Shown here in pieces: positions 8,899-62,897 of a stretch of 64,000 nt of DNA; the stretch's first letter is position 1, and each line of letters opens with the position of its first letter. The DNA comes from a phage. Made by a program: the position numbers and the translations under genes. Under the pieces are notes generated by a model. It saw only the letters and a list, made by a program, of their open reading frames with translations, did not search any database and was not told the DNA's origin. Location of the stretch: the sequence record OZ346212.1, one strand, 5' to 3'.

Positions 8899-9324
8899 AT
8901 GATCTATGAAATGCCAAAACTGATTCGTGACGATGCCCAAAACGCCCACACCTTTATCATGGGCAAGCGCATGGATATTATTTGTCATAAAGATTTCTGG
9001 GAAGGTAGTTACTTCACAGAATATTTTGGTAAACTGGATAATGGTCTGCTGATCCAGTTCTACACCGATGCGGAAAACAATATCTGCTGGGAGTTCGAAA
9101 CTGAAGATATCCATAAACTTTTCACCTTCCTAGGTATTAAGGTTGAGGCCAAGTTTGAAGAAGGCGAGTGCGACGATTGTGGATTCTACGAGGTAACAGA
9201 TTTCTATCTCCCAAGTGGTGAGAACCTTTACTATGAAAGCCACTTCGGCAACTCAAATATGCCACAAGGTTGGGATGAGTTTTTTGAAATTGCGGAAGAG
9301 GAGCTGACATACCGTGATTATTGA
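8899..9324 (+). CDS. hypothetical protein (141 aa)
   Basis: Track ORF, SD-like GGAG upstream. Confidence 0.55.
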   Translation: MIYEMPKLIRDDAQNAHTFIMGKRMDIICHKDFWEGSYFTEYFGKLDNGLLIQFYTDAENNICWEFETEDIHKLFTFLGIKVEAKFEEGECDDCGFYEVTDFYLPSGENLYYESHFGNSNMPQGWDEFFEIAEEELTYRDY

Positions 9325-9772
9325 TACTGTAGCGGGAGATTTAATCTCCCTTTTTAAGAGCGGTGCTGGTCACCTGATCCACGGTTGTAACTGCTTTCAT
9401 ACAATGGGTGCAGGCATAGCGAAAGATATTGCCCGTGAGTTCCCTCAAGCACTGGCAGCCGACAAAGAGACTGCCTATGGTAATCTGGACAAGCTGGGTA
9501 TGTTTTCTTGTTGGGAGCATTTTGCCAAGAACAGGGTCGTATATGGAATCAACCTGTATACCCAGTTCTACCCAGGGCCCAATGCTGAATACTTCTCAAT
9601 AATGAAAGGTTTTGAGCGAGTCAACGAGGTATTCAAAGGTGTGTCATTGCCGTTCTACATTCCTAAAATTGGATGCGGTATTGGCGGTCTAAAGTGGGAA
9701 CATGTAGAAGATGTAATTAATCTTGCAACCACAGATATTGATGTGGTTGTAGTAGAGTACAAAAAGTGTTGA
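9314..9772 (+). CDS. macrodomain protein, TARG1/OARD1-like (putative ADP-ribose hydrolase)
   Basis: GDLISLF...HGCNCFHTMGAGIA and IPKIGCGIGGLKWEHV align with human TARG1 GDLF...HCISEDCRMGAGIA and MPRIGCGLDRLQWENV. Confidence 0.7.
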   Translation: MIIDTVAGDLISLFKSGAGHLIHGCNCFHTMGAGIAKDIAREFPQALAADKETAYGNLDKLGMFSCWEHFAKNRVVYGINLYTQFYPGPNAEYFSIMKGFERVNEVFKGVSLPFYIPKIGCGIGGLKWEHVEDVINLATTDIDVVVVEYKKC

Positions 9773-29273: not shown

Positions 29274-29744
29274 CTACTTAAATAGTAGTTCAAAATAGTG
29301 CAAAATTAACAGAAGTTGAACTACACCTAGTGCAACGGCGAGTATGTTAATCTTAGAATCGAAAAACTTCTTAACTTTTACTCTAAAAGGTTCCTTAATG
29401 TCCTTTACGATCCTATCTATAGATGACCTCATATCTCTGATTACCATCCTGAACATTAAAGACGGATGCTCCCCCATCTCCGTAACGGAATCGAAAACAT
29501 ACTCTCTTCGGTCATAAGGGCCGCCAGCTCTGCGTATTAACCTCTCCACAGAGACCTCGAACGTCACACCTGTAACGTAATCATCTATAACAAGTCGTGA
29601 CGGGTCTTTACCTTTACTATCAAGAGGTATCAAAGTTATCTTTCCAGATTTTGTTAAAATTTCCCCTTTTTCAAGCAAGGTGTACCAATGCTCTCTGCCA
29701 AGACTGTTGAGGCACGTTTTTACATATTTAACAAACATCGTCAC
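29274..29744 (-). CDS. hypothetical protein with C-terminal TM helix (156 aa)
   Basis: C-terminal ILAVALGVVQLLLILHYF. Confidence 0.5.
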   Translation of the reverse strand: MTMFVKYVKTCLNSLGREHWYTLLEKGEILTKSGKITLIPLDSKGKDPSRLVIDDYVTGVTFEVSVERLIRRAGGPYDRREYVFDSVTEMGEHPSLMFRMVIRDMRSSIDRIVKDIKEPFRVKVKKFFDSKINILAVALGVVQLLLILHYFELLFK

Positions 29745-30403: not shown

Positions 30404-30937
30404 CTACAAATGGTCGCTGAGGGTGTCAAGAAAATTATCCCGTTCTTTCTCAGAGTTTTCATGTGTGTAGCTGAAAAACATATCGAGAATAACCTTATTG
30501 ATATATTCCAGCTCCTCTGTGTTCAGATGCTTAGCAGGATCTACAATGACATCCCAAATATCATACAGACCGCACTCATGATACCCATAACGCCACTCAA
30601 TTGTCAAGCTGAGCGGCAAATCTTTACCTTCACAAACAACCTTCCATCTACATATGTTGGTATCTGGTCGTACCTGTGCACGGTACACCTGCACAAAATC
30701 CAATTTGAATTTGAGGTACTCGTCATACAATTTAAGCACAAAGCTCTCGATTTGTGGAGACACTTTTGCAGCAAACTGTGCGTATTCGTACTTGCACTGG
30801 ATGATCTTTCTGCGTTTTGCAGTTAAATTTTTTGCCGCCAGTTGTTCTTCAGTGTATCTCCACCTACGATCAACAAACGCAACAGGGTCTTTGTCCCCAT
30901 AGAGGTCTTCCCAGTTAATCAGAAGCATACCTGTCAC
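30404..30937 (-). CDS. hypothetical protein (177 aa)
   Basis: Track ORF. Confidence 0.55.
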   Translation of the reverse strand: MTGMLLINWEDLYGDKDPVAFVDRRWRYTEEQLAAKNLTAKRRKIIQCKYEYAQFAAKVSPQIESFVLKLYDEYLKFKLDFVQVYRAQVRPDTNICRWKVVCEGKDLPLSLTIEWRYGYHECGLYDIWDVIVDPAKHLNTEELEYINKVILDMFFSYTHENSEKERDNFLDTLSDHL

Positions 30938-36263: not shown

Positions 36264-37532
36264 TCAGCAACCACAACTTCCGTAGTGCTTAACTCGCTCG
36301 ATAACTTCCGCTTGCTTACCTTTATTGTAAGGACGGGAGTTAGGACTGGAAAGGTATCCAGACACACGTCGAATTACACTGATCGTTCCCTCTTCATGGT
36401 TTCCACACTCTGGGCATACAAAGCCTTTAGCTGTTGCACTGAACTCACCAGAGAAACCACACTTGAGACATTTATCCACAGGTTGGTTAATACCAAAATA
36501 CATAATGTGTTTATACCCGAAGTCAACAAGAGCCTCTAAAGCATCCAGGTTGTTTTTCAGGTTAGGTGTTTCTACGTATCCGATGTTGCCACCAGAGGAT
36601 ATCATAGCAAAACCTTCTTCATACTCCCACTTATCAAAAGGAGAGCTATTGATCCATACTGGCTGATGGAAACTGTTGGTGAGATATTCATGCTCGTGCT
36701 TCAACACTTCAGGATATTCACGATCCAGACAGGTTGCAGCTTTATAGCATAGACTCTCAGAAGGGGTGCCGTACAAACTAAACGCTAGTCTACTTTTCTT
36801 CTTGTATCGCTCACAAGCATCTCTCATGTGCTGAAGTATTCCAAGAGCTAAAGCCTTGTCACCCTCTCTGCCCAAAATCTGACAGGTTTCATACACACCA
36901 ATATACCCAATACTGATGGAAGCGTACCCGTCATAGAAGAGTTTATCAATACTCTCTTCAGGATCCAGGCGAGCAAGAGCGCCTTCACACCACATGATAG
37001 GGTTCTGCCCTGCCTTAGTGCCTTTCAGACGGTTAACCCTTACAAGGTGAGCTTCATATGCCAAATCCAGATACTCGTCAAGAACGGAAAAGAAATCAAC
37101 ACCTTCCGTCTTAGCTTTTGCCGCAATCATTGGCAGGTTAAGACTAACAACACCCAAGTTGAATCTGCCGAGGTATTTCTCCTCACCTGTTTCCAAGTCA
37201 TTGTATTTGCTAAGAAAACTCCGGCAACCCATGCTCGTTACTTTACCATCTGTCGAGCCTGTCACTTTACGATTTAGTGGAACAGAAACAAAGTCAGGAT
37301 AAATCCGCTCTGCAGAGCATTCCAGAGCTAATCGTTTCAAATCATAGTTAGGATCTCCAGGGTTCATGTTGACACCCTCTTCTAGGAAGAACAACACTTT
37401 AGGGAACACAGGTGTGATACGTTCTTCACCAAGACCCATTTTGTGGACTTTCAAGTAGTTTTTGGTAATCATTCTACCAAAGACTGAGGTGTCCAGACCT
37501 AAACTTAATGTGATGAATGGAGTCTGCTGTCT
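36264..37532 (-). CDS. nrdD: anaerobic ribonucleoside-triphosphate reductase, exon 2 (glycyl-radical half)
   Basis: In-frame upstream extension RQQTPFITLSLGLDTS...; MGCRSFL active-site Cys, RRVSGYL glycyl-radical motif, C-terminal CxxC...CxxC. Confidence 0.75.
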   Translation of the reverse strand, partial: RQQTPFITLSLGLDTSVFGRMITKNYLKVHKMGLGEERITPVFPKVLFFLEEGVNMNPGDPNYDLKRLALECSAERIYPDFVSVPLNRKVTGSTDGKVTSMGCRSFLSKYNDLETGEEKYLGRFNLGVVSLNLPMIAAKAKTEGVDFFSVLDEYLDLAYEAHLVRVNRLKGTKAGQNPIMWCEGALARLDPEESIDKLFYDGYASISIGYIGVYETCQILGREGDKALALGILQHMRDACERYKKKSRLAFSLYGTPSESLCYKAATCLDREYPEVLKHEHEYLTNSFHQPVWINSSPFDKWEYEEGFAMISSGGNIGYVETPNLKNNLDALEALVDFGYKHIMYFGINQPVDKCLKCGFSGEFSATAKGFVCPECGNHEEGTISVIRRVSGYLSSPNSRPYNKGKQAEVIERVKHYGSCGC

Positions 37533-38332
37533 CCTCCCTGTGTTTCCACAGGGCCAGACTATCTCTTACTCTACTTCAATAAGATAATAACCCTTTATTG
37601 TGAGATGCTTACCTTCGGCATTTCCTTCGATAGCCCTATGAACGTTACCTACGTTCAAATTTAAGGCTTTTGCACAGGCATAGAGTGAAGGATATTCACC
37701 CACCAAGGTTTTACCTTTGTATGCCTGCACTTTCCTATAGCACTTACCTGGACAAAGTCCTGTTCGGAAAGCATGTCTCTTATTATCTTCCGGCAAAACC
37801 CACTCTAGGTTAGACGGATGATCATTCAATGTATTGCCATCTTTATGATTCACTTCCCAGTTTTCAGGGTCTTCTGGGACATCCGGCAAACAATACAAGG
37901 CAACAATCCTTGAGGTTTGGATTCGAATCTTTTTACCTTTGTGGTTGAAAGAGTACATATAACGGCGTTTAACATGCTTGTTACCTTTTCCATAACCTCC
38001 CCACAATATTGGGTGTAGCATTCCACGTTTTCCGTATACGTTTCCAACCTCATCAATCACATAGTTTGATTCTTCACCATTAAGAATGATCTTTTTCATA
38101 GAGCCTCTCCATTTCGAAGTTAGTATTTCAACTAACCCCTACACTACTTGGTTCAGAAATGTTTGTCAAGCATTTCTGCCTTTCGTTAGTCGTTACAACC
38201 GTTCCAACTCCTGTAAGAACTAGTCACGGGATTGGCATAGCTTTCGCCTTAGCGTTCCCCGTTAGCCGGATTTACCGACCCCTCTTATGAGGTTAGGAGA
38301 GTTTTACAACGGCCAGTTTGTTAACCGTTGAC
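37533..38332 (-). mobile_element. putative group I intron (T4-like core) in nrdD, HNH ORF in 3' region (boundaries approximate)
   Basis: 5' portion contains CUAACGGGGAAC...CAAUCCCGUG, matching the T4 td intron core AAACGGGGAAC...CAAUCCCGUG; exon 1 ends in U, insert ends in G; splice restores INTLTS|RQQTPF. Confidence 0.6.
37566..38099 (-). CDS. HNH homing endonuclease (intron-encoded)
   Basis: WEVNHKDGNTLNDHPSNLEW HNH signature; lies between the two nrdD halves. Confidence 0.8.
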   Translation of the reverse strand: MKKIILNGEESNYVIDEVGNVYGKRGMLHPILWGGYGKGNKHVKRRYMYSFNHKGKKIRIQTSRIVALYCLPDVPEDPENWEVNHKDGNTLNDHPSNLEWVLPEDNKRHAFRTGLCPGKCYRKVQAYKGKTLVGEYPSLYACAKALNLNVGNVHRAIEGNAEGKHLTIKGYYLIEVE

Positions 38333-39184
38333 AGAAGTTAACGTGTTGATTTGATAGAGCAAAGTCTGCATGCTGTCAAATACGTCTTTATCTGTCATTT
38401 GCATTGCAACAGTTTCAGCATCCGGCAACCAATGTTCCTGGCAAAATTTAAGGTTCTTCTCATAGGTTGCTTCAGCATACTGTGCCAGATAATGATCAAT
38501 ATGGCTCATAGTCTGACCACCATATTGAGCACTAGCTACCGCACTAGAGATTTGGCTAAGGATTGTTGTTGCAACCCCTATTGACTTCGGCTTACTGACA
38601 TGGGCGTTACCAATGTTGAATCCGTTTTCCAACATATCTGGATAATTTACCAAACAACAGTTTGTTAACGGACTGATCAAGTAGTCAAGATCATGCACAT
38701 GGATGAATCCTTTATTGTGCTCTTCGGAGACACGGTCTGGCAGGATCTGTGTTGATGCAAGGTGTTTGCTAAGAATACCTGCAAGCAGGTCGCGATGAGT
38801 GTGTACATGATTAGTAGGCTTATTTGCGTTTTCTTTTGTAAATTCATCACAAGTTCGATCCAAGAAGCCACTAATATCTGCAAGCAGTTTTCCACCTGCC
38901 TCTCTGTTATTATCTCTTGTCTGTCTATACTGGATGTATTCTCTGGCTGCACATTTTAAACCCATATCCATAAGAGCATCTTCAACAAGGATATGGATAT
39001 TTTTTACAGAGATCGTGCACTGGTCGGTTGGTAGATTGTTAGCAACAACTTCATTAACCGCGCAGGCGATCCGGTAAGCTTCTTCTTCAGTATGTCCAGA
39101 CTCAAGTAAGGCGGACTCTGCCGCCTTGATCACCTTAATTCCGTTATAGAACTCTTCTCTACCGTCCCGTTTTACAACTTTCAC
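38333..39184 (-). CDS. nrdD: anaerobic ribonucleoside-triphosphate reductase, exon 1 (ATP-cone and N-terminal half)
   Basis: MKVVKRDGREEFYNGIKV ATP-cone start; ends ...LYQINTLTS just before the intron. Confidence 0.75.
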
Positions 39185-46307: not shown

Positions 46308-46766
46308 TTAGAAGTTTGTTTTTACACGTCCCTTTTCATCAACCTCGTTGTTGGCTAGAAGCGTTACAAAGTCTGTGAAACGGACATGAAGAACTCTTTT
46401 CTTATCAAGGTATCCTAAAGCCACCCCTGAGAAATTTAGCATCAAAGGGGCTAAAGAAGCTCTGGCACTGAAATGCTGTTGTTCTACCCTTCCAACACCC
46501 TTAGTGTAGGATGGGTTAAGATTGTAAGTTCTGAATCCCAGTTTTGTTGGAGCTTTAGAATTAAAAACAACTTTATAGCGTTTCTTACTCAACTTATGCT
46601 CCAGGATAAGCATTCCCTTATCACCCTTGATAAGTTGAAAATCTGTAAAGTGCTCTTTTAATACGAAAGGTAGTGCCAGTCCCATCGCCTGCCCCCTTTG
46701 TACCGCTGTCTCACCAAAAGCTTTTGCATCAGTAAGTTCTTTGGTCAAGTCTATGCTTTTGATCAT
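46308..46766 (-). CDS. hypothetical protein (152 aa)
   Basis: Track ORF. Confidence 0.5.
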   Translation of the reverse strand: MIKSIDLTKELTDAKAFGETAVQRGQAMGLALPFVLKEHFTDFQLIKGDKGMLILEHKLSKKRYKVVFNSKAPTKLGFRTYNLNPSYTKGVGRVEQQHFSARASLAPLMLNFSGVALGYLDKKRVLHVRFTDFVTLLANNEVDEKGRVKTNF

Positions 46767-52058: not shown

Positions 52059-52563
52059 GGTAACCCTCTATCCACGAAAAGTCAGTCTTCCATTCTGGAA
52101 CTTTACTAAGCTCACGCCACTCTGCAAAGCAGTCTCGGTAATACGCCTCTGCCATACTCTTGGTGATCTTATTCACCTTAGCCAACTGATTAACTGCCTG
52201 AGCATACTTTCCACGGATATTTGCTAACCCAGGATGCACCGATGTGTGACAATCCGGGCACAGTGCTATCAGTCCGACAAGCCGGATCACTCCCTCTTCG
52301 AAAGTGTAAAGTTCATGACACTCCACTGGGTGTTTGCTGCCTTTACCGCCGCACACCTCACAAGTGTAGTTGGCTTCTCTATAGCACTTCTTACGTATCT
52401 TATCCCACTCACTCTTCTTCACAGCGTTTCGGAGGTTATTATACCAAGCTGTTTCTGGGATCAGTTGCACAATAAGCCTGCGTTCAGACTTCATTAAACG
52501 TCCGTCTTCCACGTGTTCTCCCTCATTCAAAGAAATGGGTGCGAGGGCAGGAACCTGCCTCAC
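52048..52563 (-). CDS. HNH endonuclease (free-standing)
   Basis: CEVCGGKGS...HPVECHELY...CPDCH zinc/HNH motif pattern. Confidence 0.6.
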   Translation of the reverse strand: MRQVPALAPISLNEGEHVEDGRLMKSERRLIVQLIPETAWYNNLRNAVKKSEWDKIRKKCYREANYTCEVCGGKGSKHPVECHELYTFEEGVIRLVGLIALCPDCHTSVHPGLANIRGKYAQAVNQLAKVNKITKSMAEAYYRDCFAEWRELSKVPEWKTDFSWIEGYLDG

Positions 52564-52729
52564 CTTGTTTCACAAGCTCGTAGAGCTCACCTTGACTTGT
52601 CTCATAAAGGCAAATACGTTTACCATTGTCCCGATATACATCGACAAGATACGCTGTTTCACCTGCAAACACGACACCACAGGCCAGACATGCTACCATG
52701 AACAAAATTGCCAATAGAAAATCTTTCAT
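52523..52729 (-). CDS. small secreted or membrane protein (68 aa)
   Basis: N-terminal LLAILFMVACLACGVVFA signal-like segment, directly downstream of lysozyme. Confidence 0.45.
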   Translation of the reverse strand: MKDFLLAILFMVACLACGVVFAGETAYLVDVYRDNGKRICLYETSQGELYELVKQGEAGSCPRTHFFE

Positions 52730-52792
52730 GGTTAAGCCCTCCTAAACATTTTATGAGGTAACAATACCACGTCCGTGTGGTTATGTCAATGA

Positions 52793-53263
52793 TCAATCAA
52801 GGACAACACCGCCTGCCTTTTTAAACACCTCGATCAACTTCTCGATCTTCTGTTCATGCTGACCATATCCAGCACCAGGTAACGAAGCCCAGCGGGAACG
52901 GCATTTATGGATAGCCTCGTGGATACGCCCTTCGTCAATGTCGGCGAGAGCCTTGCACTCACGGATCAGTTGCAACGCAATCTTGTCCTGACTGGCGGGG
53001 CCAAAATCTGGCAATCCTAACTGTTCCATGTAGTGTTTAGCAAACTTCTCCAAAACCTGGTAACGACCAGCAGCGGAGGAGGTAAGTTTAGCATTTAGCT
53101 TAACGTACACACCTGGATGCTTGCTGTAATCGCTAAACAGCTTGCCACCAACTATGACATCGTATCCCCGATCCTTAGTGGGTTGCCTACCATTATCTGT
53201 GCCTTCCGAATATGCGATCATGTCCAAGAAAGCTTTTCGTTGAACATTTTTATCAAGTTTCAT
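52793..53263 (-). CDS. lysozyme / lytic transglycosylase, lambda R-like endolysin
   Basis: QRKAFLDMIAYSEGTDNGRQ...GYDVIVGG...WASLPGAGYGQHE collinear with lambda R QRKAFLDMLAWSEGTDNGRQ... Confidence 0.85.
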   Translation of the reverse strand: MKLDKNVQRKAFLDMIAYSEGTDNGRQPTKDRGYDVIVGGKLFSDYSKHPGVYVKLNAKLTSSAAGRYQVLEKFAKHYMEQLGLPDFGPASQDKIALQLIRECKALADIDEGRIHEAIHKCRSRWASLPGAGYGQHEQKIEKLIEVFKKAGGVVLD

Positions 53264-53386
53264 TTTTCATACTCTCCAGTTTACTCATAACTAACACGAT
53301 CAACAACACTACACAGTGTGGTTATGTAGGTGCCGATTGAAAACCATCATTCAATTGGCTACCGTTACCTACTGAACCTTCCTACA

Positions 53387-54670
53387 TCATTCAAGCACCT
53401 CCCAAGTGTCTGGGTTAACATTTCGGACGCAGATACCGACAGGGAATTGGTAATTGTTGTCTTCTGTCCTTGCTTGGTATTTGAAGGTGACAAACTTGCC
53501 GATCATTTCCTGCATCCTGTCATAGCTACGCTCCTCGTGCGTGCCTTTCATCTTCATTTTAACAACAACACCTTCCTTGTCAACACAGATAAGAACACCT
53601 TCATCATTCTTATCTTTCTCAACGTCAATAACTTTCACCTCTGCGTCGTTGAACTTTTTCCATTTCAATGCTTCAGATGTTCGCTGACCATACTCATATT
53701 TACCGCAGAAATTACGCATGATAGTACCTTCATATCCTTCGGACATGAATATACCAACAGATTCTTCGCAATGATCAACTGTGTACGCAAGCTCTGCGTC
53801 AACAACCTTGATATGATCAAGCATCAGAGTGGTAACGGTATCCTCTGCATCCATAAGATCCTTGCAGCGTCCAGACTCTGTTTCTGGATCCCACCACACC
53901 TTGTCGCTAGGAATATCAAAAATGTGATACTCCAGATCGTAGCTACAGTATCCACCGTAACGCAAATCATCACGAACAGGCTCAACATCGACAGGAATAT
54001 CTACCTTGTTGAAGTTTTTGTATGTTGATAAGCCTGCCTTAATTGCTGCATGACGGCGTTTTTTATCTGCCTCATAGTCTTTATCGATCTCGGCCTGAAT
54101 CTCTTCCTGTGTGCGCCACCGTTTAGCAAGAGACACTATTTTCTGCAAAGGAAGACCATGAATGTATAGTTCCCCATCAAGTTGTTTAATCCCAGTGGTA
54201 GAATGGAAAGAACGAAGTTGCTCTAAAAGCTTTCCTTGAATAGGGTAGGACTTATTACCACGGGAAATAAATTTAGGCTCACCATTTTGGAAAACAACAA
54301 GCAGACGAAGGCCATCTAACTTACGCAAGATCCAGCAAGGTAATTTAAGTGCCTTGCCACGCTTCAGGTAGTCATGCACCAGCATAGGTAAAAGATCAAC
54401 ACCCTGCTCGCAATCTTCCATGTTTTCAACATACCCCAGACGGACTTGTTTTTCCCACTTGCTGATAGCCTCAAGCTCGGCCTGTTGCTCAGCTGTAGTC
54501 TCGTTGGCACGACCTACGTTTTTAGGTGTACATACCGTCTCTTTGTACTGCAATTTACCGTCAAGCTTGCCAAACTCTACGATAACCTTTTCGCCATCAG
54601 TGAATACTTTCCACTGTTGGTAGCTGCCATCTTTGTTCAGTGCGTACAGTGTTGTTTTGATTTGATGCAT
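53387..54670 (-). CDS. ATP-dependent DNA ligase
   Basis: Adenylation motif I RKLDGLR (KxDGxR). Confidence 0.7.
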   Translation of the reverse strand: MHQIKTTLYALNKDGSYQQWKVFTDGEKVIVEFGKLDGKLQYKETVCTPKNVGRANETTAEQQAELEAISKWEKQVRLGYVENMEDCEQGVDLLPMLVHDYLKRGKALKLPCWILRKLDGLRLLVVFQNGEPKFISRGNKSYPIQGKLLEQLRSFHSTTGIKQLDGELYIHGLPLQKIVSLAKRWRTQEEIQAEIDKDYEADKKRRHAAIKAGLSTYKNFNKVDIPVDVEPVRDDLRYGGYCSYDLEYHIFDIPSDKVWWDPETESGRCKDLMDAEDTVTTLMLDHIKVVDAELAYTVDHCEESVGIFMSEGYEGTIMRNFCGKYEYGQRTSEALKWKKFNDAEVKVIDVEKDKNDEGVLICVDKEGVVVKMKMKGTHEERSYDRMQEMIGKFVTFKYQARTEDNNYQFPVGICVRNVNPDTWEVLE

Positions 54671-54939
54671 TACTCGGCCTCTTCCTTAAAAATTTTAAAC
54701 ATCTCTTCTTTACTCATTACCAACCAGTCTCCCATAAAGTCAACTAACCAATCTCCCTGGTACAAAACCAAGTTGCCAAACGGCTCAACAAGCTCACACA
54801 TGCGACGAATATCTCTGGTCCGAACAGGTGACGATGTAAACACACCTGTATCAATCCACCGTTGCAGATCAGATACTGATGAAGAGCTTCCATCAAACTG
54901 GTGTGCTTCTACAGGTTTAGCAAGATTAAATAACGGCAT
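54670..54939 (-). CDS. hypothetical protein (89 aa)
   Basis: Track ORF; ATGA overlap. Confidence 0.5.
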   Translation of the reverse strand: MPLFNLAKPVEAHQFDGSSSSVSDLQRWIDTGVFTSSPVRTRDIRRMCELVEPFGNLVLYQGDWLVDFMGDWLVMSKEEMFKIFKEEAE

Positions 54940-55234
54940 TGCAGTCCTCCTTCTGTAGTAGGTCTTTTATAGGATAAACAAGTAAGTGTGGATCGGAATA
55001 ACGTATAGTCCTATTCTGCCACACTATGAACTTTATTACAACCAAATTTACAATATCTTTATCACCATGTAGCCCAACACACACATTTGTCCATATTTTG
55101 TGGTTGAAGATCTTGCTATCGATGTAGATTTTAGTGTCAAACTTATCTTCCATTCTACCTATAAGTTTGATCAGCTCCTTCATCTGGTCGCCAAACACAG
55201 CATCTTTTTCAAGATCTCTGGAATGCTTGTACAT
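54926..55234 (-). CDS. hypothetical protein (102 aa)
   Basis: Track ORF. Confidence 0.5.
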   Translation of the reverse strand: MYKHSRDLEKDAVFGDQMKELIKLIGRMEDKFDTKIYIDSKIFNHKIWTNVCVGLHGDKDIVNLVVIKFIVWQNRTIRYSDPHLLVYPIKDLLQKEDCNAVI

Positions 55235-55296
55235 AACTAACTACCTCACTGCATACTTTCCATAATAAGTAAAGCCGGGTAATCCCGGCTATGTTG

Positions 55297-56010
55297 TTAA
55301 ATATACTCTGTTACATCCTTGAAGCTCGAAGGCTTCATAATCTTACCTTTACTGTCAAGGAATATAATAACTTTATTACCGTTGTAGAACTCCTCTTTAG
55401 CAACGAAACCTTCGTAGCGACCACCAAAACGACGCTCAAGATCTTCAATCTCTAACTCTATGAGCAATTCAGTAGACATATCTGCACTGGCACCGTGAGA
55501 ATATCGTAGATGGTTGATCCGTGCAAACTTGCTGTCATTAGATTTGAGAACCTTCCGCATCATCCCACACACATCGCCGCGAAGCTGGAACAGCAAAGCT
55601 GTTGACAACTCCGCTAAGCGGTAAGCTGACGCTCTTTGCTTGGATGTGTTTTTCGCAGCGATCAGTGTATCATAGAACTCACCGATCTTGAACTTAAGAC
55701 CTCGTGGATTATCAAACAGGTTTGACCACTTTTCGTGATTATCATTAACAAGATAAGCGGCATAACTTGTGACAACGTGAAGATCGCAGGCCTCTTTTAG
55801 CAGGTGATCTCCACCATCACCTTTCTCCAGCTCTTCCAAAACCTCATTGAACTCTTCCTCAATGAAGCTAAGCTGTAATTCGAATGGTGTGTATGATTTT
55901 TTCACTTTAGCTGCCACACGGTTCCAGTTTTCCACCCAGTTGGCAGACCAAAGGTAGTTTTCAGGCTGAGACAGTTTTTCCAGGTTGTCGATCAGTTTAG
56001 TATTCAGCAT
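55297..56010 (-). CDS. hypothetical protein, possibly MazG-like NTP pyrophosphohydrolase
   Basis: EEEFNEVLEELEKGD...LKEACDLHVV reminiscent of MazG EExxE...EA...D pattern; weak. Confidence 0.3.
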   Translation of the reverse strand: MLNTKLIDNLEKLSQPENYLWSANWVENWNRVAAKVKKSYTPFELQLSFIEEEFNEVLEELEKGDGGDHLLKEACDLHVVTSYAAYLVNDNHEKWSNLFDNPRGLKFKIGEFYDTLIAAKNTSKQRASAYRLAELSTALLFQLRGDVCGMMRKVLKSNDSKFARINHLRYSHGASADMSTELLIELEIEDLERRFGGRYEGFVAKEEFYNGNKVIIFLDSKGKIMKPSSFKDVTEYI

Positions 56011-56023
56011 TAAAGGTCTCCTT

Positions 56024-56785
56024 TTAAAGTTCCATAAAGTTTTCTACAGTTTCAATAAATGCTTTATCAGAGAAAGCGTCAACAGCACCGTTAAACCATA
56101 CAGGGATCCCGCGATCCTCATATTGATAAAGGTCGCTACGTGAAATGCCACTCCCATCTGCACTCTGCGAGTCATACTTGTTTACAATCAGCAGTTTTGT
56201 GCCTTTACAAGTAGCAGGAAACAATTCCCAGTTAAAATTAATAACTGTGTTAGAACAACCTACTAGGATCACCATATCATTGCTTGTGAGAGATGTCAAC
56301 AGGTCATACATGTCTGTATACTTAGGAGCAACCTCACCGAAGAACACTACATTGGGCTTAACCCAGGTATACTTGCCTGTATCTACCTCCGTGTATCCGA
56401 TATTTTTAATTACATCATTACCTTCAGCATCTTCGTAGGTGATTTCAGGCAAATACCCGTGGACATGTAAAATATCTTCATGTTTTACACCAGCACGCTC
56501 CAGCAAATCATCTACATTGGTGGTAAGGTTGATCACACGACCAGACCAGCGGGAATACCACTCAGCGATCCGAAGATGTGCAAGGTTAGGATCAACACTG
56601 CCCAGAGCTACACGACGTGCATTGTAAAAGTCATGCACCTTATAGTAGTTCTTGGCAAAGGTGTGGATGTTGCACACCTCATCGATGCTGAAATTCTCCC
56701 ACATTGCAGTGCTACCAGATCGGAAAGTGGGAATACCAGATTCAGCGCTCAAACCAGCACCGGAGATAATAATCAGTCGTCGCAT
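56024..56785 (-). CDS. Sir2-family (sirtuin-like) NAD-dependent protein lacking zinc-ribbon cysteines
   Basis: Rossmann signature IIISGAGLSAESGIPTFRS and catalytic-His region LHVHG; no CxxC...CxxC pairs. Confidence 0.75.
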   Translation of the reverse strand: MRRLIIISGAGLSAESGIPTFRSGSTAMWENFSIDEVCNIHTFAKNYYKVHDFYNARRVALGSVDPNLAHLRIAEWYSRWSGRVINLTTNVDDLLERAGVKHEDILHVHGYLPEITYEDAEGNDVIKNIGYTEVDTGKYTWVKPNVVFFGEVAPKYTDMYDLLTSLTSNDMVILVGCSNTVINFNWELFPATCKGTKLLIVNKYDSQSADGSGISRSDLYQYEDRGIPVWFNGAVDAFSDKAFIETVENFMEL

Positions 56786-56793
56786 AAGTGTCC

Positions 56794-57144
56794 TCAGTAG
56801 ATGTTTTGTTTAATCTCTATTCCAAACTTCTTGAATGAGTCAGCAGCAAGCATAAATTTACGAGCTGCCGATGGATTAGAAGTATGCACGAAAATAATCA
56901 CGTTGTCAATAAGTGGTGGCTTTCCGAATACAAGTTTCTCCTCTAGCGCAGAGAAGCAGTCGTACCCTTCAAGCACTTCACCTAGATCATTGTCAAAATA
57001 CCACTCAGATACGCGTCTGTAGAGCTTTCTCTTATCATTAAGAAAATCCATAAACTCAGAAGAATTCTTTAGCCACAGAGCGTCTGGGAGTCCATAATCT
57101 GACGGATCTCTAAAATCATCAAGCCACACAATCCACTTCTTCAT
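56794..57144 (-). CDS. hypothetical protein (116 aa)
   Basis: Track ORF between the sirtuin-like and ligase-like genes. Confidence 0.5.
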   Translation of the reverse strand: MKKWIVWLDDFRDPSDYGLPDALWLKNSSEFMDFLNDKRKLYRRVSEWYFDNDLGEVLEGYDCFSALEEKLVFGKPPLIDNVIIFVHTSNPSAARKFMLAADSFKKFGIEIKQNIY

Positions 57145-58076
57145 TGCATATAGTCCTCGTTGTGGAAATAGTAGTCCAGTATCTCACGACGCTCCTGCTC
57201 TAATAAGCAATTCCACACATCTTCTGTATAGTTGCTACGAATAAATTTTACCATACCGTAAAACTCTTCGTCAACACGTTTAAAGATATCATCATCCCAA
57301 ATCTTCCAAGCTTTACCCCTCATTACTGCCTTCCGTGCCAGATAGTATGGAGACTTGATCTTCAGCTGCAGATCATAAGGGTAGTAAGGCTTACGAATCA
57401 TATACCCTTCACCTCTTGTTTCTGCAGCTAATTCTTTTGCATAGCTGAACGGAATTTCACGCACAGTGTTAGGACGTTTTGCACCAAGGTATTTGGCAAT
57501 CCCATCTAAAGCTGCTTCTGGTAGCATTATTCCAGAATCATTATATCTGCAACCTATCAAATATGCGCCATGGTCTTCTTGAACAATATGCGGATCTGAA
57601 GGGTGACAAATTTCAAACATGAATGTCATGTTTTCATTGCCCATAACCTTCTTGATAAGATCTAAATTACCACATTGCTCTTGGATGGTTTCCTTTGCAA
57701 GGTTACAATATGGAGAATCAAGAGACCCGGTTGTTGAGAACAATAGGTCACCTTTATGAGATGATACCACACCAAGGAATCCGTTCTTTTTCTCTACCGC
57801 AGTCACAAGCTTATTGTCAGGCAGGTTGGTGGAGTTTTCTCCCAAGTTAAACACTTTTGTGAAGGGCCATGCCACAACATTTCCTTCATTACCTACAACA
57901 ATGCCTCGGCACTCCAGTAAACGAGGGGACAAATGCCATAAATTGTTGTAAAATACTTTTCTAGCATATTTATAGATCTTTAACCCGAGATCTGGGTAAT
58001 ACCTACTGGTTACAAGACCTTTGTCAACTAGGTCGTCTGCATTAAAATACTTCATTATATGTTCCTCATTTGTCAT
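57141..58076 (-). CDS. putative RNA ligase / nucleotidyltransferase (ligase superfamily)
   Basis: Candidate motif I VEKKNGF (KxNG); divergently paired with P-loop kinase and phosphoesterase next to tRNA genes. Confidence 0.4.
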   Translation of the reverse strand: MTNEEHIMKYFNADDLVDKGLVTSRYYPDLGLKIYKYARKVFYNNLWHLSPRLLECRGIVVGNEGNVVAWPFTKVFNLGENSTNLPDNKLVTAVEKKNGFLGVVSSHKGDLLFSTTGSLDSPYCNLAKETIQEQCGNLDLIKKVMGNENMTFMFEICHPSDPHIVQEDHGAYLIGCRYNDSGIMLPEAALDGIAKYLGAKRPNTVREIPFSYAKELAAETRGEGYMIRKPYYPYDLQLKIKSPYYLARKAVMRGKAWKIWDDDIFKRVDEEFYGMVKFIRSNYTEDVWNCLLEQERREILDYYFHNEDYMQ

Positions 58077-58176
58077 TTTGTCAGTCTATCCTGCCACACA
58101 AATAACCTAGTGTCAACACTTGAAATTAACAAAACAGTTAGGTATACTACCGTTGAAATTAAAACGGAGGGTCGCT

Positions 58177-58587
58177 ATGTCTAAAATGCTATATATCGTG
58201 CGTGGTCTACCAGGGTCTGGCAAATCAACACTGGCAAATGAGCTATCTTTAGAGGGTCTGTATCCACATTTTGAGAACGACATGTTCTGGTATGACGATG
58301 ACGGCAATTACAACTGGGATGCAAGTAAAGTAACACTCGCAGCAAAATGGTGCAAAGATAACGTAGAAGATATGATGCGTATGGGATACGACCGTATCGT
58401 GGTAAGTAATACGTTTACAAAAGAAAAACATGTGCAGGAATATGTTGACATGGCAATCACTCACGGGTATAGTTATACCGTGATCGTGGTTGAAAACCGC
58501 CACGGTAATAAAAGCATTCATGATGTTCCAGACAAGGTTGTGGATCGTATGGAACGCCAGCTTAAAAACTGCATTAAACTTAAATGA
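58177..58587 (+). CDS. P-loop polynucleotide-kinase-like protein
   Basis: ATG 58177 after GGAGGG; Walker A GLPGSGKST; track ORF start 58120 lies in promoter. Confidence 0.6.
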   Translation: MSKMLYIVRGLPGSGKSTLANELSLEGLYPHFENDMFWYDDDGNYNWDASKVTLAAKWCKDNVEDMMRMGYDRIVVSNTFTKEKHVQEYVDMAITHGYSYTVIVVENRHGNKSIHDVPDKVVDRMERQLKNCIKLK

Positions 58588-58594
58588 GGAATGT

Positions 58595-59149
58595 ATGAAA
58601 TACTTTGTAACAAGCGACACACACTTTCTCCACCAGCGGGTCATGGAGTTTGATTCATGTCAAAAACACAGATCTCAGTATGATCACAATCTTGACAGTA
58701 TGAATGCAGGAATCATCGCCGAGTGGAACTCTGTTGTGTCACCTGCAGACACTGTGTTCCACTTGGGAGATATTGCGTGCACTAATGATAAGAATATCAA
58801 CAACTTACTTCCAGATATTCTAAATATGTTGAACGGACATATTATTCTTGTTCGTGGCAACCATGACACAAGGACGACTGTCAGAATTATGAAAGAGTTC
58901 GGTCATGAGGTTGTAGATTATTACGAGCTTCGCCACAACAAGAATTTGATCTGTATGAGCCATTACCAGTTTGCAAAGTGGAACAGAAAGCCTCACGGAT
59001 CAGTCCAACTGTTCGGTCATGCTCACGGAACCACACAACAGTTGTTTGGCAGGCAGCTTGATGTCGGTTGGGATGTGTGGGGGAGACTCTTACCATTAGA
59101 AGAGGCATACCGTATTGCAATGAGTTTTGATATTGACAGCAGGGAGTAA
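58595..59149 (+). CDS. calcineurin-like metallophosphoesterase
   Basis: MPP motifs SDTHF, GDIAC, GNHD; ATG 58595 after GAGGA. Confidence 0.65.
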   Translation: MKYFVTSDTHFLHQRVMEFDSCQKHRSQYDHNLDSMNAGIIAEWNSVVSPADTVFHLGDIACTNDKNINNLLPDILNMLNGHIILVRGNHDTRTTVRIMKEFGHEVVDYYELRHNKNLICMSHYQFAKWNRKPHGSVQLFGHAHGTTQQLFGRQLDVGWDVWGRLLPLEEAYRIAMSFDIDSRE

Positions 59150-59196
59150 TCCCTGCTATTTTAAAGAAAATTGCCACACAAGGAGAATCAGGAGAT

Positions 59197-59547
59197 ATGA
59201 AAGATGGGGATAAGCTGCTATATCTTAAAGTCCCCCTTGAAATACTATCTATGTCAAAAGTTTTGAATGACACAACTGGGGAGGTTGTTGTTCTTGACTT
59301 GTATGACAAGATCGTATACTGCTACCTGCACAACTGGTATAAGCTTGGAGGAAATTCACGCTTCACACCAAGCACAAGGAAAATTGCAGCAGATGTTGGG
59401 ATAAAGAAAACAAAAGCAGCAGCGTGCGTTAAAACTTTAGAATGTGCAGGAGTGGTTGAAACATCCACACAAGGGAGAGGTAAAAGATGCACATTTTCCA
59501 AAGTTTTGCCACCAGAAGAAGTTATTCGGATGTCAACAACTGGTTAG
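59197..59547 (+). CDS. putative HTH DNA-binding protein
   Basis: Helix-turn-helix-like STRKIAADVGIKKTKAAACVKTLECAGVV; immediately upstream of iteron array. Confidence 0.5.
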   Translation: MKDGDKLLYLKVPLEILSMSKVLNDTTGEVVVLDLYDKIVYCYLHNWYKLGGNSRFTPSTRKIAADVGIKKTKAAACVKTLECAGVVETSTQGRGKRCTFSKVLPPEEVIRMSTTG

Positions 59548-59621
59548 ACCAGTAAAAACTTAAATATCTGTACTATAAGGATTCGTATGTTTTATGTTCG
59601 CCATGGAACGGATACTATTAA

Positions 59622-59704
59622 CTGTCCGTGATACGGACACTACTGTCCGTCACGCGGACACATCTGCCCGTAATACGGACACTAACTGTCCGTGATACGG
59701 ACAC
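59622..59704. repeat. four phased palindromic iterons (CTGTCCGTGATACGGACAC, 21-22 bp period)
   Basis: Copies at 59622, 59643, 59664, 59686; each an inverted repeat TGTCCGT-N3-ACGGACA; followed by AT-rich tract to about 59830. Confidence 0.85.
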
Positions 59705-59829
59705 ATAAAGAATATAACTAAAATAACTAAATAATAAAAAATAAAAGATCTAGTACTTATGGTACTAAGTACATATACTTAACTTATGTAGAATATACTA
59801 GATCCTAAGTACCATGTTTTAAATTTATT

Positions 59830-60100
59830 ACTTACTATGGGCAGTGTCGGCCCTTCATTGGCACTCGCCTACGAGGGGGCGAGATGCCGGGCCTCCTTGG
59901 CGCACACAATAACAGAAGTTCATACATGCAGGTCTGTTAACATGTGTGGGAGCGAAGCGATAGCGCAGGCCAAAGGCCGAGCACTGATGTGGACCACCGA
60001 CGAAAGCTTGCCAGCGCCGTAAGGAGTCGGTTGAGAGTCTCCCGCGCGAGCTTGGATGAAGTTTATGTGTGGAAACTGACAAGAAGGCCCCTAAATCGCT
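59830..60100. ncRNA. GC-rich structured non-coding segment (candidate ncRNA, identity unknown)
   Basis: Sharp GC jump in an AT-rich genome; nested hairpins e.g. GGCA-CTCGCC-tacgaggg-GGCGAG-a-TGCC; both-strand ORFs are not protein-like and lack SD. Confidence 0.3.
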
Positions 60101-62084: not shown

Positions 62085-62159
62085 GCCCTGTTAGCTTAGT
62101 GGATAAAGCAGCGGCCTTCTAAGCCGTTGACACTGGTTCGAGTCCAGTACGGGGTGCCA
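62085..62159 (+). tRNA. tRNA-Arg (anticodon UCU)
   Basis: Hand-folded cloverleaf: acceptor GCCCTGT/ACGGGGT, anticodon loop CTTCTAA, T-loop TTCGAGT, encoded CCA. Confidence 0.8.
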
Positions 62160-62163
62160 AATT

Positions 62164-62250
62164 GGGGAGTTATCCCGTAGAGGTAGCGGTGTAGACTGTA
62201 AATCTATTGTCATTGCGACTCGGGTGGTTCGACTCCACCACTCCCCACCA
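62164..62250 (+). tRNA. tRNA-Tyr (anticodon GUA), long variable arm
   Basis: Acceptor GGGGAGT/ACTCCCC, anticodon loop CTGTAAA, T-loop TTCGACT, CCA; overall like E. coli tRNA-Tyr. Confidence 0.8.
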
Positions 62251-62364
62251 AATTTATATTTTTAGATGCATAAATAATACAGATAATGGCATTGATATTT
62301 ATCGTCGTTTATACTAGTCACTAACTGCTCGAAAATCAGTGTCATTATCAGTATTATTTATAAA

Positions 62365-62455
62365 GGAGGGTAGGGAGCAATGGTGCTCAATCGGTCTTGA
62401 AAACCGTCCCGTTGAGGATGACTCGATGATGGTTCGATTCCATTACTCTCCGCCA
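62365..62455 (+). tRNA. tRNA-Ser (anticodon UGA), long variable arm
   Basis: Acceptor GGAGGGT/ACTCTCC, anticodon loop CTTGAAA, 20-nt variable arm, T-loop TTCGATT, CCA. Confidence 0.75.
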
Positions 62456-62553
62456 CATTGTTGACCTTGTAATTAAGCGAAAGTCGGAAGCAGAACCGGA
62501 TTATCAAATGTTACAGTCGTCATCGCCGACTAGCAACATGGTCAACATACTGA

Positions 62554-62650
62554 GCTAGGTAAGCCCTTTGGCAAGGGCGAGGATTTTTAATCCTGAAAAT
62601 AGACGAGGTAGTCGTTGAATACATAGGTGGTTCGATTCCATCACCTAGCA
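62554..62650 (+). tRNA. atypical 97-nt tRNA-like gene (possibly Lys-UUU with about 29-nt variable region) or pseudo-tRNA
   Basis: Perfect acceptor GCTAGGT/ACCTAGC, D-arm GCCC...GGGC, hairpin with loop TTTTTAA, extra hairpin ACGA-ggtag-TCGT, T-arm GGTGG-TTCGATT-CCATC; no encoded CCA. Confidence 0.35.
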
Positions 62651-62657
62651 CCTTTTT

Positions 62658-62733
62658 GCTGATGTAGCACAATCGGTAGTGCAATTGATTTGTAATCAAT
62701 AGGTTGTAGGTTCAAGTCCTGCCATCAGCACCA
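62658..62733 (+). tRNA. tRNA-Thr (anticodon UGU)
   Basis: Acceptor GCTGATG/CATCAGC, anticodon stem ATTGA/TCAAT with loop TTTGTAA, T-loop TTCAAGT, CCA. Confidence 0.85.
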
Positions 62734-62734
62734 A

Positions 62735-62809
62735 GGCCCTGTAGCTGGAAGGTTCAAGCAAGCGACTCATAATCGCCAGACGGTGGTTCAATTCCACCCA
62801 GGGCCACCA
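62735..62809 (+). tRNA. tRNA-Met or Ile2 (anticodon CAU), elongator type
   Basis: Acceptor GGCCCTG/CAGGGCC fully paired (not initiator-like), anticodon loop CTCATAA, T-loop TTCAATT, CCA. Confidence 0.75.
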
Positions 62810-62820
62810 AATAGTAAATA

Positions 62821-62897
62821 CTCCGCGTAGCTCAGCTTGGTAGAGCGCCTGATTTGGGATCAGGAGGTCGAGTGTTCGAATCACTCCGTGGAGACCA
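62821..62897 (+). tRNA. tRNA-Pro (anticodon UGG)
   Basis: Acceptor CTCCGCG/CGTGGAG, D-arm GCTC...GAGC, anticodon stem CCTGA/TCAGG with loop TTTGGGA, T-loop TTCGAAT, CCA. Confidence 0.85.

Follow-up and report, generated by a model that had tools for sequence, protein, structure and literature searches.

The window analysed here, a stretch of 64,000 nucleotides of the sequence record OZ346212.1, belongs to the genome of an rV5-like Escherichia coli phage (Vequintavirus) and raises the question of what a phage does with a sirtuin that has preserved its nicotinamide adenine dinucleotide (NAD+)-binding signature and catalytic region but lacks the cysteines that coordinate zinc in canonical sirtuins. 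The gene occupies positions 56024..56785 on the minus strand and encodes a protein of 253 amino acids (aa) from an ATG start codon, with the ribosome-binding site GAGGA located 6 nt 5' of it. A preliminary description of this locus, made from the letters of the DNA alone, considered the product a possible ADP-ribosyltransferase rather than a deacetylase, on the ground that zinc-less sirtuins are typically enzymes of that kind and work with macrodomains. As set out below, the gene context points to RNA end-repair and not to a protein-modification switch of the SirTM type. The function tentatively preferred, at somewhat less than an even chance, is a NAD+-dependent step in the repair of RNA, probably tRNA, in which the enzyme would act on an RNA substrate through 2'-phosphate chemistry, after Iyer et al. 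2022. This reading is preferred because the active site appears intact, the gene sits in a tight block of RNA-end-processing genes, the linkage recurs in other phages, and the same role had been predicted by Iyer et al. 2022.

The sirtuin and its zinc-free small domain

The identity of the protein as a sirtuin, already recognized in the preliminary description, is upheld by profile comparisons. The Pfam family SIR2 (PF02146) matches with an E-value of 6.9e-28 (98.2 bits versus a cut-off of 24), positions 1-178 of the 180 in the model being covered by residues 9-181, and PHROG 2162, labelled 'Sir2', matches at 1.5e-108. The best relatives found by sequence in the PDB are E. coli CobB (1s5p) and human SIRT5, with E about 1e-21, and an AlphaFold2 (AF2) model built with 56 relatives as input (mean predicted local distance difference test score, pLDDT, 90.4; predicted template modelling score, pTM, 0.89) retrieves CobB at the top of a Foldseek search (6rxq/1s5p, template modelling score 0.74-0.84), followed by Sir2-Af1 and SIRT5. 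The CobB-type NCBIfam models (NF040867, NF001753, NF001755 and others) all score far under their cut-offs, with 122.6 versus 243, 104 versus 320, and 93 versus 318. Because of these low scores, the protein is to be regarded, as far as its sequence goes, as a divergent derivative of the class III (CobB/SIRT5) sirtuins and not as a CobB orthologue. Sirtuins of the defence-type NADase kind (ThsA, DSR, SIR2-HerA) are not indicated either, since the SIR2_2 family (PF13289) reaches only 13.2 bits versus a cut-off of 24.5, and the PADLOC defence models give no meaningful match to the protein, the sole marginal one being PDC-S65 (E 0.011, 13 bits).

The residues involved in NAD+ binding and catalysis were mapped onto CobB and SIRT5 by alignment, and their invariance was assessed in 56 relatives whose identity with the window protein is 50-93%. 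The NAD-binding motif GAGLSAESGIPTFR extends over residues 9-22 (G9-R22; 56720..56761, minus strand), where G9, A10, G11, S16, F21, and R22 are invariant. The HVHG motif (residues 107-110; 56456..56467, minus strand) includes H109, the catalytic general base that corresponds to H147 of CobB; both H109 and G110 are invariant, and H109 is found in all representatives aligned across that position (148/149). N90 and D92, which belong to the NAD site, are kept within the motif TTNVD (56510..56524, minus strand), which replaces the canonical TQNID and in which the Gln that contacts the NAD-ribose has become Thr89. The substrate-loop motif FFGE (residues 148-151; 56333..56344, minus strand) shows invariant F148, F149, and E151, and V146 corresponds to V187 of CobB. 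The list of invariant residues is completed by C38, F53, T89, V91, K143, P144, G176, S178, and N202, in addition to N90, D92, and the residues of the pocket described below. Because of this mapping and this invariance, the NAD site and the catalytic machinery look intact, and the sirtuin is apparently active. The NAD-binding signature and the HG catalytic region named in the preliminary description are therefore both in place, and the inactive protein without the catalytic His that it had envisaged as a counter-case is excluded.

The substrate pocket carries the class III signature. In the sequence YNARR (56612..56626, minus strand), Y54 and R57 constitute the Y-x-x-R motif (Y102/R105 in SIRT5, Y92/R95 in CobB), and Y54, R57, and R58 are invariant in the same set of relatives. 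In SIRT5 and CobB, the Y-x-x-R motif binds an anionic group. C38 (56672..56674, minus strand) lies at the acyl-pocket position where CobB and SIRT5 have Ala (A76 and A86, respectively), and it is kept in 120/120 relatives. The possibility that C38 represents a catalytic novelty of the clade was rejected, as Cys also occurs at this position in most zinc-containing relatives. Altogether, the window sirtuin shares with CobB and SIRT5 the elements GAGxS, F/R, N-x-D, the catalytic His, FGE, GxS, and Y-x-x-R, whereas it differs from CobB in having no zinc ligands, Thr for the Gln of TQNID, and Cys for A76, as well as in being encoded by a phage among RNA-repair genes.

The small domain is the part of the protein that departs most visibly from this scheme. 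The remnant of the zinc ribbon, YLPEITYEDAEGNDVIKNIGYTEVDTGKYTWVKPNVV (residues 111-147, 37 residues; 56345..56455, minus strand), contains neither Cys nor His. The whole protein has three Cys residues (C38, C177, and C193), none of them between HVHG and FFGE, and C155, C174, C176, and C177 of CobB align to Y117 and a gap. Across 120 relatives, no Cys is conserved within residues 111-147, the sole recurring one being at position 142 (47/120). The absence of the four zinc Cys, as first described, thus holds for the window protein and for these relatives, and a cryptic zinc-binding motif, a case that the preliminary description left to be settled by proper alignment, is excluded because no Cys or His exists in this segment and none is conserved among the 120 relatives. 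In the AF2 model, DSSP assigns beta strands 110-118, 124-128, and 142-146 in place of the ribbon, with pLDDT 94-95. According to this model, the zinc ribbon is stripped of its metal ligands and not deleted, and it is now a predicted zinc-free beta hairpin.

The loss of zinc ligands is associated with the replacement at the NAD-ribose contact. In a set of the 146 best representatives whose core is complete, taken from clusters at 50% identity (P0097, P0121-P0269), those with Gln at the TQNID site have three or more ribbon Cys in 79 cases and two or fewer in 8, whereas the corresponding numbers for Thr, Ser, or Ala are 14 and 43 (Fisher p 1.5e-16, uncorrected for shared ancestry). Although no proof of functional coupling, this distribution hints that the small domain and the NAD-ribose contact are structurally coupled.

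Gene neighbourhood in the window and in other phages

The sirtuin gene is the third of four minus-strand genes in the order RNA ligase, cREC, sirtuin, and MazG-like gene. The first (57141..58076) encodes an RNA ligase of the T4 Rnl1 type with 311 aa (Pfam RNA_lig_T4_1, 1e-14; PHROG 562, 1.9e-65). It is followed, directly upstream of the sirtuin, by a cyclic-phosphate-processing receiver domain protein (cREC; 56794..57144) of 116 aa (Pfam cREC_REC PF20274, 9.1e-14). The MazG-like nucleotide pyrophosphohydrolase of 237 aa (55297..56010) owes its identity solely to PHROG 671 (5.7e-22), as it has no Pfam match and no PDB sequence match. These genes are closely packed: 4 nt are shared by the RNA ligase and cREC genes, cREC ends with a stop codon within the ribosome-binding site of the sirtuin gene, and 13 nt separate the sirtuin stop from the MazG start. 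Most likely, to judge from this arrangement, the sirtuin is co-expressed with the RNA ligase, cREC, and the MazG-like gene. A perfect 7-bp hairpin (6/7 G-C), found by pattern match only and present on both strands owing to its palindromic nature, separates the MazG-like gene from the small open reading frame (ORF) that follows (55273..55290), and may be the terminator that closes this transcription unit; a scan for promoters and terminators over positions 52500-60000 found such sites no commoner than in shuffled sequence.

Further genes of nucleic acid metabolism surround this unit. Downstream of the MazG-like gene lie an ATP-dependent DNA ligase gene (53387-54670) and two small ORFs of unknown function. 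In the opposite direction, two divergent genes on the plus strand encode a P-loop protein of the polynucleotide kinase type (58177..58587; Pfam AAA_33, 5.9e-11; PHROG 505, 'polynucleotide kinase'), whose counterpart in the record of phage EmilHeitz is annotated as polynucleotide kinase, and a calcineurin-like metallophosphoesterase (58595..59149; Pfam Metallophos_2 and Metallophos; PHROG 547, 1.5e-51). The proximity of the sirtuin to ligase, RNA-ligase, and MazG-like genes that had been noted from the sequence is borne out by these Pfam and PHROG identities.

This neighbourhood had been described by Iyer et al. 2022 (PMC9503650, section 3.7.3), with phage V5 as prototype, and the removal of RNA 2'-phosphates in the manner of KptA/Tpt1 was predicted for it; the absence of an adjacent macro gene was remarked there, while the loss of zinc is unmentioned in the main text. 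The window sirtuin is a member of this V5 clade, with all five of the T4-like RNA ligase, cREC, kinase, MazG, and calcineurin-like phosphoesterase genes beside it and with an RNA ligase 98% identical to that of phage V5, so that no substantive difference from the clade is apparent.

The recurrence of the context was examined in 64 IMG/VR loci with relatives of the sirtuin, tracing the neighbours found in the window by iterated profiles. In 14 of the 64, belonging to the rV5 and Mydo types, RNA ligase, in some cases cREC, kinase, and sirtuin occur together, and they are at most a few genes away from MazG, DNA ligase, and phosphoesterase. The linkage is kept between both types despite a changed gene order and only about 55% identity of the sirtuins. 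In T5-like loci, a gene for a HAD_SAK_2 protein (PF18143, 'Swiss Army Knife RNA repair' phosphatase, 1.8e-20) is found one small gene 3' of the sirtuin, with NrdD on the 5' side. Because RNA ligase blocks exist in rV5 and Mydo phages and an independent linkage to HAD_SAK_2 exists in T5-like phages, the association of the sirtuin with RNA-end-processing genes is, on sequence evidence, recurrent in at least two separate phage lineages, without being universal or obligate. The T5-like loci also contain two tandem DUF7415 paralogues of unknown function (142 and 130 aa, with two repeats each), which always come after Sir2 and HAD_SAK_2 (e.g., L007, 9502-10329).

Other loci present different surroundings. 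The neighbours of the sirtuin are uncharacterised in phi92-like loci, and another phage group shows the order NAMPT (nicotinamide phosphoribosyltransferase)-Sir2-EndoVII-NrdD-NrdG (L063, 6057-8705; L068, 5086-7720), the second contig being binned as a 'Bacilli' metagenome-assembled genome while looking like a phage contig. The pairing of NAMPT and sirtuin places a nicotinamide releaser beside a nicotinamide recycler. A census by Pfam family, which covered the five ORFs closest to the sirtuin at each of 30 diverse loci and gives family counts and not assignments per locus, yielded NrdD (6), RNA_lig_T4_1, DNA ligase, and DUF7415 (5 each), AAA_28 (4), HAD_SAK_2 and AAA_33 (3 each), and NAMPT and cREC (2 each).

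An array of seven tRNA genes (62085-62897, plus strand) lies ~3 kb from the RNA-repair block of the window, and comprises Arg-TCT, Tyr-GTA, Ser-TGA, an odd gene, Thr-TGT, Met/Ile-CAT, and Pro-TGG. Both the array and the block may answer host defences that cleave tRNAs. The odd gene (62554-62652, plus strand) is predicted by ARAGORN as a tRNA of 99 nt with a four-base anticodon 'atcc' and no amino acid assigned, and it reaches only 35.5 bits with the Rfam tRNA model; tRNA-Lys is annotated at the matching position of the EmilHeitz record. It could be a tRNA bearing an insertion or intron, or else a decoy or variant.

The macrodomain and the candidate functions

The macrodomain invoked in the preliminary description exists elsewhere in the window (9314..9769, plus strand) and is of the TARG1/DarG/Poa1p type (Pfam Macro, 1e-5), DarG, Poa1p, and TARG1 being its relatives in the PDB. 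Three other ORFs that were considered as macrodomains (29274-29744, 30404-30937, and 46308-46766) were discarded, as they have no Pfam match. The macrodomain gene belongs to another gene block, 46 kb apart from the sirtuin gene and on the opposite strand. The family is represented in 2,742 phage records versus 1,012 for the sirtuin, including T4-like phages without a window-type sirtuin, where the homologues adjoin the gene for the valyl-tRNA synthetase modifier; PHROGs labels the family 'phosphatase'. The yeast protein Poa1p, one of its closest relatives of solved structure, is an ADP-ribose 1''-phosphate phosphatase of the tRNA-splicing pathway. The presence of a macrodomain in the genome fits every model considered here, because the range of compounds that macrodomains process covers O-acyl-ADP-ribose, ADP-ribose 1''-phosphate, and ADP-ribosylated macromolecules.

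The idea that the protein is a SirTM-like mono-ADP-ribosyltransferase of proteins, whose modification would be reversed by the phage macrodomain, can draw on this gene and on the weak protein ADP-ribosyltransferase activity that some sirtuins exhibit. Nevertheless, it is considered very improbable. Besides the distance, strand, and distribution of the macro genes, the 25 families most frequent next to the sirtuin in the 30 diverse loci do not include Macro, and neither GcvH-L nor LplA2 is adjacent to the window sirtuin. SirTM enzymes possess a zinc-coordinating domain and have Gln in place of the catalytic His (Q137 in SpySirTM; Rack 2015, PMC4518038), with the macrodomain adjacent or fused and with an operon that includes GcvH-L and LplA2 (PMC4518038). 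Apart from the sirtuin fold and the use of NAD+, the window protein displays the reverse pattern, with the catalytic His, without zinc ligands, and without such adjacent genes. A phage sirtuin that is coupled to a macrodomain, that of Streptomyces phage Faust, served as a control. It belongs to the sirtuin-macro type of actinophages noted by Iyer, Burroughs, Anantharaman, and Aravind 2022 (PMC9503650), is annotated 'ADP-ribosyltransferase', and is directly followed by a macro gene, the C-terminal macro motif being shared with the macrodomain of the window (E 2e-7). Both sirtuins are phage-encoded and have the catalytic His, but that of Faust, which shares only 27% identity with the window protein, has retained TQNID, HVHG, and CxxC...CxxC. 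Accordingly, the premise that zinc-less sirtuins are typically macrodomain-linked ADP-ribosyltransferases fails for SirTM and Faust alike. Of the preliminary description, the idea of an ADP-ribosyl-transfer role instead of deacetylation is still a viable hypothesis, on grounds other than those first given, whereas a SirTM-like partnership with the macrodomain is unsupported.

The preferred reading, an RNA-repair step that consumes NAD+, starts from the cleavage of tRNAs by host nucleases, which leaves 2',3'-cyclic phosphate and 5'-OH ends. In the proposed pathway, the cyclic end would be opened to a 2'-phosphate, the ends would be healed by the kinase together with the phosphoesterase or cREC, and the RNA ligase would seal the break. 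If a 2'-phosphate remained at the junction, the sirtuin would move ADP-ribose from NAD+ onto an oxygen of this phosphate, and, with His109 as base, the ribose 2''-OH could then attack the phosphate in the manner of Tpt1/KptA, which would leave a clean 2'-OH and set free ADP-ribose 1'',2''-cyclic phosphate. This product might be cleared by cREC and possibly by the macrodomain. Sirtuin deacylation and the Tpt1 reaction share their chemical logic, since in both of them an oxygen nucleophile attacks C1'' of NAD+ and an attack by the ribose 2''-OH follows. Tpt1/KptA is therefore a possible functional analogue, with NAD+-dependent two-step chemistry and an RNA-repair context; the likeness is in mechanism only, since Tpt1 has an unrelated fold and an R-H-R-R tetrad, whereas the window protein has the sirtuin fold. 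In its strongest form, an idea of Iyer et al. 2022, this proposal makes the protein the first sirtuin to act on nucleic acids and a non-orthologous substitute for Tpt1/KptA in the removal of RNA 2'-phosphates, by NAD+-dependent ADP-ribosyl transfer, within a phage tRNA-repair operon, which is deemed unlikely, if not markedly so. In this case, the anion-binding Y-x-x-R pocket would have been turned to phosphate, remodelling of the zinc-free small domain would give RNA access to the cleft, and the removal of the ADP-ribose cyclic phosphate would fall to cREC and the macrodomain. In a less likely variant, the sirtuin would deacylate an amide attached to RNA, for instance the N-acetyl-aminoacyl-tRNA that GNAT toxins produce.

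Several observations weigh against a role in RNA repair. Regarding gene context, T5-like phages have the sirtuin without the window-type RNA ligase, the RNA ligase family occurs without the sirtuin (e.g., in 177 Pseudomonas phage records), and other loci place NrdD/NrdG, NAMPT, or housekeeping genes beside the sirtuin. HAD_SAK_2 and cREC are only predicted RNA-repair enzymes, and repair in the style of T4 would need no more than the kinase, phosphoesterase, and ligase, with no step at a 2'-phosphate. Regarding the protein itself, the residues of the pocket and substrate loop are those of ordinary lysine deacylases, and the window sirtuin has neither an extra nucleic-acid-binding domain nor clade-specific basic residues. 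Moreover, the family is acidic (isoelectric point, pI, 4.6-6.05, median 5.1), whereas Tpt1 is basic and binds RNA directly. Finally, a literature search found no experimental work on any phage sirtuin.

The main rival reading is an ordinary NAD+-dependent lysine deacylase (a deacetylase, desuccinylase, or similar enzyme) that would reset the acylation of host or phage proteins, in which case the RNA-repair neighbours would reflect the mere clustering of early genes of nucleic acid metabolism. This explanation is considered nearly as probable as the step in RNA repair. The nearest sequences and folds are those of CobB and SIRT5; all residues needed are invariant, including H109, Y54/R57, FFGE, and V146; the nearest zinc-containing relatives share C38, Y54, and R57; and an acidic pI is typical of cellular sirtuins. 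Moreover, a Deefgea chromosome has a zinc-free homologue on its own, surrounded by housekeeping genes, many loci have NAMPT or NrdD and not RNA-repair genes beside the sirtuin, and the zinc-free homologues of Vibrio phages were read as deacetylases by Skliros et al. 2016 (PMC5107563). The scores of the CobB-type NCBIfam models speak against a plain deacylase, as do the family-wide loss of zinc ligands with the change from Gln to Thr at the NAD-ribose contact and the repeated tight linkage to several RNA-end-processing genes in separate phage lineages; in addition, no target protein is known. A NAD+ glycohydrolase or an enzyme acting on a small molecule, which would lower or reroute host NAD+ or else destroy or produce a nucleotide signal, possibly in counter-defence, and which might include NAD-capped RNA among its substrates, is judged improbable. 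NAMPT directly beside the sirtuin (L063, L068), AAA_28-type kinases in 4 of 30 neighbourhoods, and a MazG-like neighbour that acts on nucleotides would agree with it. However, known NADase sirtuins are of the SIR2_2/defence type, for which the PF13289 and PADLOC results given above speak negatively, the preservation of the substrate loop and the Y-x-x-R pocket speaks for the binding of a co-substrate, and hydrolysis of NAD+ would bring little benefit to a phage that itself relies on this molecule.

Distribution, precedents, and significance

The sirtuin gene of the window is 100% identical in Escherichia phages naswa, magaca, and EmilHeitz, and 119 phage records match it at 80-100% DNA identity, with the annotation of Sir2-family NAD-dependent deacetylase. 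'Campylobacter phage' records of the series MG0656xx (C14, C15, D1, A141, A135, and others) have sirtuin and RNA ligase genes (56024-58076) that are 96-100% identical to those of E. coli rV5-like phages, and a macro gene with 83% identity; the 'Campylobacter' host label of these records is probably wrong, or the records are contaminated. At a wider range, 951 homologues at E <= 1e-5 are found in a protein database clustered at 90%, and the best 120 of them are all 240-300 aa long except for one fragment of 144 aa, the larger contigs that bear them being of phage size, with a maximum of about 150 kb. When 1.84 billion representatives were searched with a profile, 166 proteins were retrieved at E <= 1e-30. 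Among GenBank phages, the 1,012 records with a homologue include T5-like, rV5-like, phi92-like, Mydo-like, and Vibrio schizoT4-like/KVP40-like phages as well as some jumbo phages, with the T5-like phages as the largest group.

Cellular genomes also harbour this type of sirtuin. A scan of the genomes of 185,579 species detected at least 14 loci, a lower bound because the scan was keyed on one peptide pattern (TTN[VI]D...); some of them are phage-like contigs, and others are stand-alone chromosomal copies (Iodobacter, Deefgea, and Chitinibacter). In the chromosome of Deefgea chitinilytica (Chitinibacteraceae; L071, 7004-7705), the zinc-free Thr-type sirtuin is alone among genes for solute-binding and chitin-binding proteins. 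Because such stand-alone copies exist, the zinc-free sirtuin is mainly but not strictly viral.

A precedent is the Sir2/CobB protein of the Vibrio phages phiSt2, phiGrn1, and KVP40, which was modelled for phiSt2 and phiGrn1 by Skliros et al. 2016 (PMC5107563). It is reported to have no zinc-binding site left, although its catalytic His and the tunnel for acyl-lysine persist; the same protein was reported there in T5 and other phages. These proteins are homologues of the window sirtuin, which Vibrio phage records match at about 45-50% identity over residues 1-200, but they belong to other phage groups and have NAD+ salvage genes instead of an RNA-repair block. The sirtuin annotation, the loss of zinc, and the prediction based on the neighbourhood are thus already published; what is added here is the residue-level map, the family-wide link between Thr89 and the loss of zinc, the contrast with the macro-coupled sirtuin of Faust, and the neighbour census.

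The function of this protein concerns more than 1,000 sequenced phage genomes in which a zinc-free sirtuin is present. If it removes RNA 2'-phosphates, sirtuin chemistry would be extended from proteins to nucleic acids, and the counter-defence of phages would include a further, NAD+-dependent branch directed at nucleases that cut tRNAs. Should it be an ordinary deacylase, the zinc site of sirtuins would be dispensable, and large lytic phages would reset the acylation of host proteins. The zinc-free clade also constitutes a natural test of the need for a zinc ribbon in sirtuin folding.

A further feature of the window concerns NrdD, the anaerobic ribonucleotide reductase, whose gene is split at about 36264-39184 (minus strand) with a homing-endonuclease ORF inside (37566-38099). 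In the EmilHeitz record, it appears as a two-piece joined coding sequence, and the interruption suggests an intron or an intein-like insertion.

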